DNA of 64,000 nt from Saprospiraceae bacterium (GTDB lineage Bacteria > Bacteroidota > Bacteroidia > Chitinophagales > Saprospiraceae). The stretch is taken from contig JAEUUU010000013.1 in assembly GCA_016787345.1 (NCBI GenBank), forward strand, positions 25,357-89,356, written 5' to 3'. Positions 16,669 through 21,507 of the stretch are shown here, in pieces. The notes below the pieces were generated by a model, which searched no databases, was not told where the DNA came from, and was given only the letters and a program-made list of their open reading frames with translations. A program made the translations under genes and the position numbers. The stretch's first letter is position 1, and each line of letters begins with the position of its first letter.

Positions 16669-18405
16669 ATGCGCCGCTTTCTTTCACTCTGCCTGATCCT
16701 GCTGGCCGCCCGCCTGGCCGCCCAGACCACCTACTGCAACCCGCTCAACATCGACTACGGCCACACACCCATACCCGGCGCGGCCGCCTGGGGCGCCCAC
16801 CGCGCCACCGCCGATCCGGTCATCGTGCGGTTCAAAGGGGATTACTACCTGTTCAGCACCAACCAGCGCGGCTACTGGTGGAGCAGCAACCTGTCCGACT
16901 GGCACTTCGTGTCGCGCAGTTTCCTGCGACCCGACCACGATACCTACGACGACCTCTGCGCCCCGGCCGTGGGCATCATCGGCGATACCCTCCTGGTGTT
17001 CGGCTCCACCTACACCCGCGATTTCCCGATCTGGATGAGCACCGAGCCGAAAAAAGCCGACAGCTGGACCGAAGCCGTGCACAAATTCGATATCGGCGGC
17101 TGGGACCCCGCCTTTTTCACCGATACCGACGGGCGACTGTACCTGTACAACGGCAGCAGCAACCGCTACCCGATCTACGGCGTCGAACTCGACCGCCAGA
17201 GTCTGCAACCCCTCGGCGCCCGCAAGGAACTCTACACCCTCGAACCCGAGCGCTACGGCTGGCAACGCTTCGGCGAACACCTCGACAACACCTTCCTCGA
17301 CCCCTTCATCGAGGGCGCCTGGATGACCCAATACGGCAACCGCTACTACCTCCAGTACGGCGCGCCGGGCACCGAATTCAGCGGATATGCCGACGGCGTG
17401 CTGGTGGGCCCCGGGCCGCTGGGACCTTTTACGCCGCAGTCGGACCCTTTTTCTTACAAACCCGGCGGCTTTATTCGCGGGGCGGGGCACGGCAGCACTT
17501 TTCAGGATGCCTGGGGCAATTACTGGCACACGTCTACCCTGGCCATTTCGGTCAAAAACAATTTCGAGCGCCGCATCGGCCTGTGGCCCGCCGGCTTCGA
17601 CGCCGACAGTGTGATGTACTGCAACACGGCGTTTGGCGACTACCCCCACTACCTGCCCGCCGGCCCGGCCGACCACCTCCAAAGCCGCTTCACCGGCTGG
17701 ATGCTGCTCAATTACCAAAAACCCGTGCAAGCCTCCTCCGCCCTGCCCGGCCATCCCGCCAACCTCGCCGCCGACGAAAACGTCAAAACATGGTGGGCCG
17801 CCGCTTCCAACCGGCCCGGCGAATGGTTCCAAACCGACCTGGGCGACACCTGCACCGTGTACGCCATCCAGGTCAACCACGCCGACCAGGGCGTCGATTT
17901 TATGGGTAAATCAGTGGGCGTGTACTACCGCTACAAACTCTGGCACTCCCTCGACGGCAAAAAATGGCGCCTCCTGAGCGACCGGAGCCAGGCGGGCCCC
18001 GACGCCCCGCACGACTATCTCGAACTGCCCCGGCCCCTGCGCACCCGCTATATCCGGATCGAATTCAGCGGACAGCGCACGGGCGCCTTCGCGCTCAGCG
18101 GCCTGCGCGTGTTCGGGCGCGGCGACGGCCCACCGCCCCCGGCCGTGCGCGAGTTCATTGTGCTGCGCACCGAAAAAGACCCGCGCTCCGCCTGGCTCAA
18201 ATGGCGCCCCGTCGATGAAGCCTGGGCCTACAACATCTATTTCGGCACGTCGCCCGGCAAACTTTACAACTGCATCATGGTACACGACGCCAACGAGTAC
18301 TGGTTCAAGGGCATGGACGCCCGCAAAACCTACTATTTCAGCATCGAGGCCGTGAATGAAAACGGGGTGTCGGAAAGGAGCGGGGTGGTGGAAAAAGCGC
18401 CTTAG
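16669..18405 (+). CDS. Glycoside hydrolase family 43 with F5/8 type C (discoidin) and FN3-like C-terminal domains
   Basis: Signal peptide 'MRRFLSLCLILLAARLAAQ'. GH43-like beta-propeller region ('ADPVIVRFKGDYYLFST', 'FIEGAWM'). 'WWAAASNRPGEWFQTDLG' is discoidin-like. The terminal region is FN3-like. Confidence 0.85.
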   Translation: MRRFLSLCLILLAARLAAQTTYCNPLNIDYGHTPIPGAAAWGAHRATADPVIVRFKGDYYLFSTNQRGYWWSSNLSDWHFVSRSFLRPDHDTYDDLCAPAVGIIGDTLLVFGSTYTRDFPIWMSTEPKKADSWTEAVHKFDIGGWDPAFFTDTDGRLYLYNGSSNRYPIYGVELDRQSLQPLGARKELYTLEPERYGWQRFGEHLDNTFLDPFIEGAWMTQYGNRYYLQYGAPGTEFSGYADGVLVGPGPLGPFTPQSDPFSYKPGGFIRGAGHGSTFQDAWGNYWHTSTLAISVKNNFERRIGLWPAGFDADSVMYCNTAFGDYPHYLPAGPADHLQSRFTGWMLLNYQKPVQASSALPGHPANLAADENVKTWWAAASNRPGEWFQTDLGDTCTVYAIQVNHADQGVDFMGKSVGVYYRYKLWHSLDGKKWRLLSDRSQAGPDAPHDYLELPRPLRTRYIRIEFSGQRTGAFALSGLRVFGRGDGPPPPAVREFIVLRTEKDPRSAWLKWRPVDEAWAYNIYFGTSPGKLYNCIMVHDANEYWFKGMDARKTYYFSIEAVNENGVSERSGVVEKAP

Positions 18406-20324
18406 GGCAGGTTATCCAGCCATTCTTTCGCCGTTTGGGTATTGGGATGCTGCTCGCCGAGTTGCTTCAAAAAAAGCCGATGGGCCTGGACAAAAAGATC
18501 GCGGGCTTTTTCCTTGTCGCCCGTGTTCAAAAAAACAACGCCGAGGTTGAGTTGGCGAACGGCAACGTTGGGATGATCGGGGCCAAAATTTTTCAAATCC
18601 GAGGCTGAGGCGGCCTCCAGCAAGTCCCGCGCACGCTCGTACTGACCAAGGTTTCGATACACGTTGGCCAAATTGGATTGGCGAACGGCAACGTTGGGAT
18701 GATCGGGGCCAAAATTTTTCACTGCCGAGGCTAAGGCTGCCTCCAGCAAGTCCCGCGCACGCTCGTACTGACCAAGGGAGTCATACACGTTGGCCAAATT
18801 GGATTGGCTTACGGCAACGTTGGGATGATCGGGGCCAAAATTTTTCACTGCCGAGGCTAAGGCGCCCTCCAGCAAGTCCCGCGCACGTTCGTACTGACCA
18901 AGGTTTCGATACACGTTGGCCAAATTGGATTGGCGAACGGCAACGGTGGGATGATCCGGGCCAAAATTTTTCAAATCCGAGGCTAAGGCGGCCTCCAGCA
19001 AGTCCCGCGCACGTTCGTACTGACCCGTTTCTTCAATCACCGCGCCCAGGTTATTCATCAGCCGGCTCGCCGCTGCCGTTTCCAGATCTTCCTCTTTTAA
19101 CATACCCAGCAAATGTTCCGCGTAGTTGATCCAGGGAAACAGCAGGGGATAGTTGGTGCTTACGTCGAAATTCAGCTTTTGGGTGAAGGTCTCTACCAGC
19201 ACCGCCCATTCCTCCATGCCCGGCGTCAACTGATAGCCCACGGCCTGTTGCAACATCCTGTGCAGCCCGAAGCGGGGGCCTTCGCTTCGGGTCAGCCAGC
19301 CTTTCCGGTCGAGGCGATCGAGGGTTTCGTGCAGCTGGCGCCGTTCTTCGGCGGGTACCTGCAGCCATTCTTCGAGTTGGGCGGCCGTAAAGGCGTTGCC
19401 GGGCGGCAGCCCGACAAAACGCGCGAGCAGGAGCCGTTCGGCCGCGTCGAGGCCCGAACAATCGAAAGCGGTGAGCAGGTGGACGTAAACCTCGGTTTCT
19501 TCCTTGCTGTGGTTGGAACTGATGCGGCGCTGGAGATCGGGGTCGGCCAGCTGGCGGCGGCGCAGTTTAGCGGTGAGCGTGGGCAGGTCGAGGCTGCCGA
19601 AGTGGTTTTCGAGGGTTTTGGCGAGCAGTTCGACGGTCAGGGTATGGCAATCGACCTCGCGCAGCAGCTCGTCGAGCGCGGCCGGCGGGCAGTCGCCGGT
19701 GTAGTATTTGCGGAAGAGTTGGGCAGCGGCTTCCGGAGAGAGCCGGTCGAGCGGCATGGGTTCGTAGCCGTTCAGGCGGTTTCGGGAGGTCAGGAGTACC
19801 CGCCATTCGGGCGGCAGGGGCATCTGGGCGCGTATGGCGGCCTGTTCCATTTCGGCGCCCGCATTGTCCACTACCAAAAGATTAGGCCCTTTGAGCTGGC
19901 GCAAGGCGTTCATAATGGTTTGAAAACGCGCTTCGGGCGGTTCGTTTGGCGCCGCGGGCTCGAGTTGCAGGTTGGTCGCTAGCGTGGGATGCCAGGCGAT
20001 GGTTTCGATAAAAGAAGCGGCGTATTGCTGCCCGTCATGGTTGTCGTTTCCGGCGAGTTCGATCCAGAGGAAATGTTCGTATTGGCGCAATACGCTTTGA
20101 AACCAGGCTTTTGCCAGGGTGGTTTTGCCGATGCCGCCCAGGCCGTTGACCACCACGACTTTTTGCGAGTGGTCCAGTTTCGACGCCAGCGCGCGCAGGT
20201 CTTCATCACGGCCCAGGCATTCTTCCTGCGGGTCGATCGGCAGATAGGGCGTCAGCTGACGGGGAATTTCGCGGGGCTGTCCGTTGATTTGCTGGATGAT
20301 CGTACCGGCCAGGGTGACACTCAC
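18402..20324 (-). CDS. NLR-like STAND NTPase: short N-terminal motif + NB-ARC P-loop + TPR_12-type repeats
   Basis: Walker A 'GLGGIGKTTLAKAW', Walker B-like 'LLVVDNA', then at least four 42-aa TPR units ('YERARDLLEAALAS..KNFGPDHPNVAV'). It starts with GTG at 20324; there is no in-frame ATG, GTG or TTG start codon in the ~75 nt I translated upstream of it. Only ~50 aa precede the P-loop domain. Confidence 0.85.
   Translation of the reverse strand: MSVTLAGTIIQQINGQPREIPRQLTPYLPIDPQEECLGRDEDLRALASKLDHSQKVVVVNGLGGIGKTTLAKAWFQSVLRQYEHFLWIELAGNDNHDGQQYAASFIETIAWHPTLATNLQLEPAAPNEPPEARFQTIMNALRQLKGPNLLVVDNAGAEMEQAAIRAQMPLPPEWRVLLTSRNRLNGYEPMPLDRLSPEAAAQLFRKYYTGDCPPAALDELLREVDCHTLTVELLAKTLENHFGSLDLPTLTAKLRRRQLADPDLQRRISSNHSKEETEVYVHLLTAFDCSGLDAAERLLLARFVGLPPGNAFTAAQLEEWLQVPAEERRQLHETLDRLDRKGWLTRSEGPRFGLHRMLQQAVGYQLTPGMEEWAVLVETFTQKLNFDVSTNYPLLFPWINYAEHLLGMLKEEDLETAAASRLMNNLGAVIEETGQYERARDLLEAALASDLKNFGPDHPTVAVRQSNLANVYRNLGQYERARDLLEGALASAVKNFGPDHPNVAVSQSNLANVYDSLGQYERARDLLEAALASAVKNFGPDHPNVAVRQSNLANVYRNLGQYERARDLLEAASASDLKNFGPDHPNVAVRQLNLGVVFLNTGDKEKARDLFVQAHRLFLKQLGEQHPNTQTAKEWLDNLP
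18540..19045. repeat. Four tandem 126-bp near-identical DNA repeats inside the TPR region of the STAND gene
   Basis: 'gcgaacggcaacgttgggatgatcggggccaaaattttt' recurs at 18555, 18681, 18807 and 18933, an exact 126-bp period. The units differ at only a few positions. Confidence 0.9.
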
Positions 20325-20356
20325 CGCCGTGCTGCCGCTGATCTCAACCTTCTGGC

Positions 20357-20719
20357 TTAAGTTTTTTTTTCCGGGTCGGCAGCCGGGCCGGCATTGTCGA
20401 TGTTGGTTTTTACTTCTTCGCTGTCGCGCACGGTCACAGAGCCGCCGTTTTTCAGGTCGGTCGTCACTTTTTTGCTGCCCTCGACGTTTACATTGCCCTT
20501 GTCGGCGTCTTTTTCCACGATGGCATAATACCCTGCGACGCCGAGCACACCCAGGATCACAAAAAACAAAAAGCCCAGTAGCAGGGACAGATTGTCGTTC
20601 TCGCCTTCACCGGCGACACGCACGATCGAGTCTCGCATAAGGTACACGAGAATCAGGCAGAATATCGCAACGCCGAACAGGTTGCGGATTTTGATGGCTT
20701 CACTGAAAAATTTCATCAT
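20357..20719 (-). CDS. Small two-TM protein with a repeat-containing hydrophilic tail (candidate effector partner of the STAND NTPase)
   Basis: 120 aa. Hydrophobic helices lie at ~14-28 and ~44-68. The tail has two 18-aa pseudo-repeats, 75-92 'GNVNVEGSKKVTTDLKNG' and 93-110 'GSVTVRDSEEVKTNIDNA'. The gene ends 32 bp before the STAND gene start. Confidence 0.7.
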   Translation of the reverse strand: MMKFFSEAIKIRNLFGVAIFCLILVYLMRDSIVRVAGEGENDNLSLLLGFLFFVILGVLGVAGYYAIVEKDADKGNVNVEGSKKVTTDLKNGGSVTVRDSEEVKTNIDNAGPAADPEKKT

Positions 20720-20796: not shown

Positions 20797-21507
20797 TCAC
20801 ATAAAAAACCGCACAAACAAGATAATCCCGAACGTAATCACCACCTGCGTCAGCATCAGCGACAACACCGTTTTCAGGGCCACGAGCCAGAGCCGGCCGC
20901 CGAAAAACTGGTAGTTGGCCCAGGTCGTAAAAGCGGCCCACAGGACCAGGTAAACGGTGAGCATGGAAAAATAATAGGGCCGGAAAAACACGATCAGCGG
21001 CGTAAAAACCAGCATAAAAAACATGACCCGAAAGCCGCCGAGAAAGGCGTGAAGGGTCAGGTTTTCGGCGTAGTTGTAACGGCTGCGCCAAAAAAGCGCC
21101 CAGGTAAACAAAGCGCTCACCGGCGCCGCCACGAAAAAAACGAGGTTGATGTTTTTGCCGATGAGCGCCGACACGGGGTTGGCGTGCGTGGTGTCTGATT
21201 GCAGCAGATGGAATTTGGCCGTCAGGAAAGCCGACACCGCCACCGTCAGCACAAAATAACTGAACGGGTTGAAGTACTTTTTACGGCTGCCGGCCACGTA
21301 CGCTTTGGCCACCAGACCGGGGCGCAGGGCCATCTCCTTGGTCAGATGGAAAATACCCTTGTCGGCATGCGTGACGACGTGGATCAGCTCATGCAAAATA
21401 TGCCCCATGTCGAGGCGGTGTACATGGGTATTCTGCCCGCATTGTGGACAAAACGCGTGCTCCGGCGAGAGCGGGGCAGCGCAGTTTTTACAGTTGGTTT
21501 CGGTCAT
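20797..21507 (-). CDS. DUF3667-family membrane protein with N-terminal zinc ribbon
   Basis: 'CKNCAAPLSPEHAFCPQCGQ' zinc ribbon, followed by 'HILHELIHVVTHADKGIFHL' and multiple TM helices, the typical DUF3667 layout. Confidence 0.8.
   Translation of the reverse strand: MTETNCKNCAAPLSPEHAFCPQCGQNTHVHRLDMGHILHELIHVVTHADKGIFHLTKEMALRPGLVAKAYVAGSRKKYFNPFSYFVLTVAVSAFLTAKFHLLQSDTTHANPVSALIGKNINLVFFVAAPVSALFTWALFWRSRYNYAENLTLHAFLGGFRVMFFMLVFTPLIVFFRPYYFSMLTVYLVLWAAFTTWANYQFFGGRLWLVALKTVLSLMLTQVVITFGIILFVRFFM

Follow-up and report, generated by a model that had tools for sequence, protein, structure and literature searches.

Do two adjacent open reading frames (ORFs), one for a small membrane protein and one for a receptor-like NTPase, represent two genes or a single gene that is decoded in two ways? 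This question is raised by a locus in a Saprospiraceae bacterium (Bacteroidota; assembly GCA_016787345.1), located in a stretch of 64,000 nt from contig JAEUUU010000013.1 (positions 25,357 to 89,356), which we refer to as the window and to which all coordinates without a lineage name relate. The first ORF (ORF1) codes for 120 amino acids (aa) with two predicted transmembrane (TM) helices, the second for a protein resembling NOD-like receptors (NLRs; NOD stands for nucleotide-binding oligomerization domain), composed of an NB-ARC domain and tetratricopeptide repeats (TPRs). The initial annotation described them as co-directional and 32 nt apart, which holds, with checked ORF coordinates on the minus strand, and it took them for two separately translated proteins that communicate through a shared amyloid-like motif. 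It overlooked a run of nine adenines (A9) at the end of ORF1 and the fact that the NLR frame is open across the spacer. Judging from comparative sequence analysis, we consider it probable (about 0.78) that the two ORFs are one gene decoded two ways at this conserved tract, by programmed recoding. The elements of the junction are the following:

20357..20719, minus strand: ORF1 (ORF call), zero frame, 120 aa, from an ATG start to ...PEKKT-TAA; would encode the short isoform in full and the N-terminal portion of the long one
20362..20370, minus strand: A9 slippery run (T9 on the plus strand) in GAA AAA AAA ACT TAA, zero-frame G AAA AAA AAC, conserved in the compared lineages; proposed recoding site
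20325..20363, minus strand: 13 junction codons (NLSQKVEISGSTA) in the −1 frame, open and with gapless peptides in eight lineages, which cross the zero-frame stop and the supposed 'intergenic' spacer and link ORF1 to the NLR ORF
18402..20324, minus strand: NLR ORF as annotated from a GTG (ORF call, Pfam), 640 aa, NB-ARC NOD and TPR sensor; Foldseek fold matches to NRC2/NRC3, Apaf-1, Sr35 and CED-4

The adenine run between the two frames

The A9 run lies at the extreme end of ORF1 and is the sole A/T run of at least nine in the 64-kb window (expected number: 0.13). Through the 32-nt spacer and back across the run, the NLR frame stays open, and no ATG, GTG or TTG occurs in it ahead of the annotated GTG. 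Standard decoding would stop one codon past the tract and produce a 120-aa inner-membrane helical hairpin with a cytosolic, β-prone tail of ~50 aa. With a −1 shift on the run, or with one A added to the mRNA, the sequence reads ...NIDNAGPAADPEKK, followed by NLSQKVEISGSTA and then VSVTLAGTIIQQINGQP..., so that a fraction of decoding events would give rise to a 772-aa protein of the architecture 2TM-NB-ARC-TPR, comprising hairpin and tail, 13 junction residues, a β-hairpin, the NB-ARC domain and the TPR sensor. The predicted junction peptide of this conceptual fusion is ...DPEKKNLSQK / VEISGSTAVSVTLAGTIIQQINGQPR, and the N-terminus predicted under independent initiation at the GTG is fMet-SVTLAGTIIQQINGQPR. 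A promoter and terminator scan, which used a sigma-70 consensus that is inappropriate for Bacteroidota, found no terminator between the ORFs.

We compared the DNA of 16 lineages, 15 of which are informative. They comprise nine close lineages with ORF1 identities of 61–100% (the window, L013, L011, L003, L009, L014, L001, L006 and L020), four distant ORF1 relatives (L015, L016, L017 and L019; profile E 2e-17 to 4e-5), as well as L021, L092 and L018; several are covered by more than one assembly, obtained independently from different samples (L001/L002, L003–L005, L006–L008, L009/L010 and L011/L012). In every relative fetched, the 2-TM ORF and the NTPase gene are neighbours. The tract comprises nine A in 13 lineages, ten in two and eleven in one, and no other length was found down to ORF1 identities of ~30%. 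All nine close lineages share the junction G-A9-CTT[A/G]A, and in the four distant ones, A9 directly precedes the STAND (signal transduction ATPase with numerous domains) NTPase, in registers such as CGT AAA AAA AAA GCC TAA, GTA AAA AAA AAG CTC TGA and ACA AAA AAA AAG AAT TAA. The run therefore occurs in all three codon registers, which argues that its length, and not its codon phase, is the conserved property. Within the run, none of the three synonymous third positions (GAA, AAA, AAA) varies, compared to 30 out of 30 just upstream.

The relation between the frames is equally constant in the 15 informative lineages. Between the run and the P-loop, the P-loop frame is free of stops, compared to 1–20 stops in the other two frames; the zero frame terminates 0–3 codons past the run; and the required shift is always −1, equivalent to one additional A. 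The distance from run to P-loop amounts to 72 codons in 10 of these lineages, and in eight, the peptides of the −1 frame can be aligned gap-free, beginning with the first codon past the run (NLSQKVEISGS... / NLNQQVNIADS... / NLSPHLHIAGS...). Over the 12 codons that precede the GTG of the window, 7, 7 and 12 columns vary at the first, second and third codon position, and farther inside the NLR, these numbers are 19, 16 and 30; by this pattern, with third positions varying most in both parts, the spacer is coding.

No start codon of the NLR frame is conserved. A GTG or ATG is found 12–16 codons past the run in 8 of the 15 lineages, and gene-caller starts are scattered from 12 to 64 codons past it. 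Five lineages (L003, L016, L017, L019 and L092) have no start ahead of the conserved N-terminal segment of the NLR; in the first four, the first canonical start follows 51–64 codons past the run. Initiation at these positions would delete the conserved IPRQLTPY segment, and independent initiation is therefore not the general route. Consequently, neither the view of an NLR that 'begins directly with MSVTLAG', which rests on the non-conserved GTG, nor that of two separately translated proteins is supported, given an NLR frame that codes from A9 onward. Termination-reinitiation or translational coupling was likewise considered and rejected as a general mechanism: a TTG overlaps the TGA stop in three lineages only, the window has TTA/TAA at this position and five lineages offer no usable start. 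A frozen homopolymer at the frame junction and a downstream frame that codes from the shift site without a conserved start are what defines a candidate recoding site, and the locus has both.

The same arrangement is found with other N-terminal domains. The metagenomic L092 (295–1100) lacks a canonical start ahead of its P-loop and has an A10 run 42 codons upstream; when read with one additional A, the NLR is joined to a DUF4062-like domain of 211 aa (24.0 bits, below the Pfam cut-off of 24.7; E 4.5e-5). In L021 (2528–3001), from the cultured Fulvivirgaceae bacterium BMA12 (GCA_030442055.1; JAUJEB010000001.1 near 2.056 Mb), a helical ORF of 142 aa without TM segments ends in PEKKK-TAG with an A10 run at 2943–2952, and the −1 frame continues with KKKVAKDLTGPIPYIAKED... 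into the NB-ARC/TPR protein P0039, which is 39% identical to the window NLR. By homology of the downstream parts, the same device joins different N-terminal domains to related NLRs in L021 and L092, and the recoding trick would thus recur with other effectors, DUF4062-like and helical ones. Among 73 NB-ARC/TPR relatives from Joint Genome Institute (JGI) metagenomes, L092 alone has such an A-run junction; recoding therefore appears to be a device of particular lineages and not of the family as a whole.

L018 (5383–5393), a further distant relative in ORF1, has an A11 run and a second frame break before the P-loop, next to a DDE transposase gene on a 'contig_1'-style contig that looks like a long-read assembly. 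It probably represents a long-read homopolymer error or a decaying copy.

The hairpin and the receptor body

The protein encoded by ORF1 was initially described as two hydrophobic helices followed by a polar tail with two pseudo-repeats. Both parts of this description are borne out by the structure prediction and by the repeat statistics:

20639..20680, minus strand: TM helix 1 (from sequence), residues 14–27, LFGVAIFCLILVYL; AlphaFold helix 2–27 with predicted local distance difference test (pLDDT) values of 63–73; many invariant residues
20516..20590, minus strand: TM helix 2, residues 44–68; AlphaFold helix 41–68, pLDDT 70–78; invariant LGFLFF and YYA
20390..20497, minus strand: two 18-aa β-prone pseudo-repeats, residues 75–92 and 93–110; 7 of 18 positions identical, BLOSUM62 local score 36, shuffle p~0.001; conserved in the close clade

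With a net charge of +2 in the N-terminal segment and of −2 in the loop between the helices, the positive-inside rule suggests an N-in/C-in hairpin with a cytosolic tail; a cytosolic C-terminus is also required if the same polypeptide runs on into the ATP-binding NOD. The tail past the hairpin spans ~50 aa and is polar and β-prone. Together with the junction (residues 69–137), it is unstructured in the AlphaFold model (pLDDT <50), which rests on a shallow alignment in this part and is hence of low confidence there. This fits a flexible tether and would be compatible with a fold that forms on assembly.

Neither Pfam (E<=0.1) nor NCBIfam or PADLOC gave a match for ORF1. Its sequence is 100% identical to a hypothetical protein from a Saprospiraceae metagenome-assembled genome, found in a search of 5.8 billion proteins, and its relatives are few: six clusters in that database and 15 matches in a library of 1.84 billion representatives, nearly all of them stand-alone proteins of 113–141 aa. 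A scan of JGI metagenomes with the ORF1 alignment returned no match. Two dubious matches fall outside this pattern: the ORF1 profile matches 11 stretches in P0017 (3213 aa; E 5e-6), and in P0020 (257 aa; E 1.5e-4), a soluble domain of another kind continues in frame from a 2-TM N-terminus. The hairpin may occur in other contexts here, or the matches may be spurious.

The large product contains an NB-ARC P-loop and TPRs, and a Pfam scan found no further domain in it, as had been stated:

20121..20144, minus strand: Walker A / P-loop GLGGIGKT, NLR residues 61–68; 72 codons past the A-run, a spacing kept in 10 lineages
19704..20207, minus strand: Pfam NB-ARC match, NLR residues 40–207; E 4.3e-10, 39.7 bits vs 23.5 cut-off
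18426..19076, minus strand: TPR sensor region; TPR_12 E 3.9e-55, TPR_10 E 1.7e-44
18552–19025, minus strand: tandem array of a 126-nt (42-aa) unit within the TPR region, 3.8 copies, 92% identical (repeat analysis)

The NOD is predicted with high confidence (pLDDT 90–97) and shows the succession of nucleotide-binding, helical and winged-helix domains. Its best Foldseek matches are NRC3, NRC2, Apaf-1, Sr35 and CED-4 (E 2e-9 to 5e-6), and Avs3 is also found; at the sequence level, the NOD had no match in the PDB. By its P-loop, its fold and its C-terminal repeats, the NLR body is a STAND NTPase of the NB-ARC (AP-ATPase) class with a TPR sensor. The conserved segment ahead of the NB-ARC domain (IPRQLTPY..ID...C.GR) is modelled as a confident β-hairpin and helix packed with the NOD (pLDDT 71–91).

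The copy number of the TPR array differs among near-identical relatives. The conceptual fusion measures 772 aa in the window, 660 aa in L013, whose NB-ARC region is 97% identical, and 643–645 aa in L001, L003 and L014. Hyper-conserved, expandable repeats of this kind are a pattern described for fungal and bacterial NLRs.

In relatives with 63–67% identity to the NLR, other N-terminal domains are joined in frame just before the IPRQLTPY segment. L022 has an EAD11 domain there (E 2.8e-19). P0028, P0029 and L024 (63–65% identical in the NLR) have a helical domain of 90 aa with a weak match to the Het-E N-terminal family (PF20701, E 0.007), which may be related to the cell-death domains of fungal NLRs. 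Farther relatives have CHAT, trypsin-like or TIR domains in this slot. Judged from these domain assignments, the clade is modular, with an N-terminal slot for swappable effector or adaptor domains, and it is this slot that the 2-TM module fills. This makes the module a plausible membrane-acting effector.

In many related NB-ARC/TPR proteins with a short N-terminus, we further observed a recurrent motif, approximately KNIV.G.I.NV.G.V.IGD, just before an 'LT..LP' linker. It is carried by the NLR N-termini of L031, L033, L034, L041, L047, L053, L063, L064 and L071, and it is also found behind EAD11 in L022 and ahead of the A10 run in L021. Within the 2.5-kb flanks, no partner gene with this motif was found.

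The level of the slip and other explanations

If the frame is changed by recoding, the likelier cause would be slippage of RNA polymerase, by which one A is added to the mRNA; −1 slippage of the ribosome on A_AAA_AAA would be less likely or an additional contribution. What the sequence comparison shows is the slippery tract, the coding continuity of the −1 frame, the lack of a conserved start and the modular effector slot; the level and the efficiency of the slip, the presence of the fusion protein in cells and its biological output are inferred. Nine A/T residues are the threshold for efficient transcriptional slippage, as in Thermus dnaX and in insertion sequence (IS) elements (PMC1088944), and a run of nine A led to about 40% of frameshifted product in an E. 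coli reporter (PMC3711429).

A nested variant, in which the frame is changed purely by translational −1 frameshifting on A_AAA_AAA (A_AAA_AAG in L016 and L019) with no part played by the polymerase, is possible, and we regard it as the less favoured form of recoding. Whatever its register, every lineage offers a valid X_XXY_YYZ heptamer to zero-frame decoding; both A_AAA_AAA and A_AAA_AAG count among the classical shift sites of bacteria (PMC3711429); and a zero-frame stop just past the shift is common at recoding sites. However, the ribosome could make do with seven A, yet the tract always has 9–11, its register varies, and neither a downstream stem-loop or pseudoknot nor any other stimulatory RNA element is conserved on either side of the run (RNAalifold consensus of −5.2 kcal/mol with no covariation; per-lineage folds with z about 0). 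To our knowledge, Bacteroidota are also generally devoid of stimulators of the Shine-Dalgarno type, which counts against the variant as well. Because of the invariably long tract, the variable register and the lack of a conserved or stable RNA structure, we put the odds of polymerase slippage against purely ribosomal frameshifting at roughly 60:40, with a contribution of both possible.

A short GC-rich hairpin (e.g. CCGG..GGC...GCC..CCGG; 20371–20390, minus strand) ends at the first A of the run, with equivalents in L006, L009, L014 and L001. It is not distinguishable from shuffled sequences and is absent from the distant lineages. Stem-loops 5′ of a run have been reported to stimulate transcriptional slippage.

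A different way of using an A tract would be a contingency locus, in which slipped-strand mispairing of the DNA switches the NLR ON and OFF and the assemblies were caught in the OFF state. Homopolymeric tracts are hypermutable, and known examples of phase-variable tract switches include surface as well as restriction-modification genes (PMC3711429). Such tracts normally vary in length between strains, whereas here A9 is found in 13 lineages, including repeat assemblies. No in-frame fused protein occurs among 5.8 or 1.84 billion clustered proteins, and the ON frame is present in none of the 15 informative lineages and in no replicate assembly, with the A10 cases, too, in need of one more A. Phase variation at the DNA level is therefore unlikely.

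We consider it quite improbable, too, that the locus works as originally proposed, i.e. as a 2-TM effector with two repeats next to an effector-less NLR, whose own copy of the motif templates an amyloid-like tail. The conserved adjacency, the genuine internal repeat of the tail (p~0.001), its lack of structure in AlphaFold and the GTG or ATG codons 12–16 codons past the run in 8 of 15 lineages would all suit this model, and pairs based on bacterial amyloid signalling sequences (BASS) with NB-ARC/TPR NLRs do exist in bacteria (bioRxiv 10.1101/2020.01.06.895854). The likeness of the NLR N-terminus, 'MSVTLAGTIIQQINGQP', to a tail repeat on which it was founded is at chance level, however (local score 14, p~0.6). 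A comparison of the tail and NLR profiles with hhalign gives a marginal match in its favour (P=0.011, 14 columns), which aligns VNVEGSKKVTTDLK with VEISGSTAVSVTLA; half of the latter comes from codons ahead of the GTG, in what had been taken for an 'intergenic' spacer. The profile match is a weak hint that a third, degenerate copy of the repeat might span the junction. With the junction-encoded residues included, the single-sequence match reaches p~0.2. Moreover, the model must contend with five lineages that have no start ahead of the conserved region and with a coding constraint that reaches the A-run, and it leaves the invariance of A9 unexplained. ORF1 has no HeLo-, Hell- or Bell-type domain (Pfam E<=0.1), and its predicted structure is a 2-TM hairpin. 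What stands of the proposed pairing is that the 2-TM module and the NTPase form one functional unit, as indicated by their adjacency in all relatives; the two-gene architecture of HET-S/NWD2 or BASS systems is not supported.

Lastly, homopolymers are error-prone and L018 looks like such a case, but a sequencing error or a recent pseudogenizing frameshift in a once-continuous gene can be excluded on the breadth of conservation, since the tract and its frame relation recur at ORF1 identities as low as ~30% and in numerous assemblies of short reads, purifying selection acts on both parts and the prompt zero-frame stop is conserved.

Several points weigh against recoding itself and against the role that we propose for it. 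The case is wholly comparative. The simplest proof of a functional fusion would be a relative with both parts fused in frame, and none was found, neither with a 186-aa fused query among 5.8 billion proteins nor with the ORF1 profile among 1.84 billion representatives. The TTGA overlap in L006, L009 and L014 and the GTG or ATG codons shortly past the run in several lineages allow independent or coupled initiation there. Without a conserved RNA structure near the site, purely ribosomal frameshifting would be inefficient. Finally, a role in defence is inferred only, and the neighbouring genes are of a housekeeping type and in conserved synteny (a DUF3667 protein, a MacB/FtsX permease and PBP1A), with no obvious defence island. 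Two of these neighbours are the following:

20797–21507, minus strand: gene for a multi-pass membrane protein with zinc ribbon and DUF3667, immediately upstream; position kept in L003–L005
21863–24460: gene for a MacB/FtsX-type permease; syntenic also in L001

Proposed function and relation to known systems

By analogy with other STAND/NLR proteins, binding of a ligand by the TPRs would lead to oligomerization via the NB-ARC domain. In the long isoform, this would cluster the N-terminal membrane hairpins and thereby perturb the membrane, in the manner of abortive infection or cell death. Through the hairpin or tail that both isoforms share, free copies of the short one might join in as an amplifier, or they could act as a brake. 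We regard the chances of a cell-death or defence output as about even.

More tentatively, a single gene might produce both a receptor-tethered and a free effector, such that the activated long isoform nucleates a polymer or pore of the more abundant short isoform via the TM hairpin and possibly via the amyloid-like tail repeats; we find this rather doubtful. The tail repeats would then continue across the junction, and the rate of slippage would set the stoichiometry of receptor and effector. Homotypic assembly of the short and long isoforms via the β-prone tail is possible. Such nucleated polymerization would be the one-gene equivalent of pairs of NLRs and adaptors or effectors, as known from HET-S/NWD2, ASC and effector-associated domain (EAD) pairs.

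Bacterial NLR-like receptors are central to the evolution of innate immunity, and how they are coupled to their effectors, and in which ratio, is a key mechanistic question. If recoding takes place here, it would represent a new kind of wiring, in which decoding would by default give an effector-only membrane protein and, as a minority product, an effector tethered to its sensor. A non-mobile, non-viral family would furthermore join the short list of cellular genes that use A9 for a programmed change of frame. Our search of the open-access literature turned up no account of recoding in bacterial NLR/STAND genes, and it appears to be undescribed for a bacterial NLR-like gene. Annotation pipelines split such genes and truncate the NLR; surveys would therefore misclassify them as 'effector-less' NLRs beside orphan small ORFs. 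With the A10 case in the cultured Fulvivirgaceae bacterium BMA12, the recoding idea is directly testable.

The locus bears a likeness to several known systems. As in HET-S/NWD2, Bell/BASS and E. coli Bab/Agp, an NB-ARC/TPR NLR adjoins a small membrane-directed protein with two β-prone C-terminal repeats. Unlike in HET-S/NWD2 and Bell/BASS, the NLR would not be independently initiated, the shared motif has at most marginal statistical support, and the membrane part is a 2-TM hairpin instead of a HeLo or Bell bundle; for the lack of separate translation, of clear support for a shared motif and of a HeLo or Bell domain, we do not file the locus as such a pair. It also belongs to the Bacteroidota, whereas BASS motifs have been reported mainly in multicellular Actinobacteria and Cyanobacteria (bioRxiv 10.1101/2020.01.06.895854).

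With Avs, bNACHT and the NB-ARC/TPR NTPases of conflict systems, the locus shares the NB-ARC fold, near-identical TPR repeats and a slot for swappable EAD11, CHAT, trypsin-like, TIR or DUF4062 domains, and TM effectors are a recognized category in surveys of Avs proteins (PMC13581612). PADLOC gave no specific match, with hits limited to a generic TPR model (9e-6) and to Avs4 (E 0.003) and mad8 at noise level. What sets the locus apart from these known systems is an effector module that lies in a different frame and would also be made as a free protein.

As far as the junction is concerned, the closest parallels are OrfA/OrfAB of IS elements (IS3, IS1 and IS630 types) and Shigella mxiE. There, too, a short upstream ORF ends just past an A-run, the downstream ORF lies in the −1 frame and has no start of its own, the fusion requires one additional A or a −1 slip, and the short and fused products share their N-terminus; the tract length of nine corresponds to that of the slippage cases (PMC1088944). 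The differences are that the present locus codes for a membrane-anchored, NLR-like STAND NTPase and not for a transposase or transcription factor, that there is no stimulatory structure, and that slippage is presumed. The tau and gamma forms of dnaX, which arise by slippage on A9 in T. thermophilus and by −1 frameshifting on A_AAA_AAG in E. coli, likewise come from a cellular, non-mobile gene in which an A-rich slippery site gives rise to a pair of isoforms that share their N-terminus. In dnaX, standard decoding yields the long form and the slip the short one, whereas here, the slip would be needed to make the long form.

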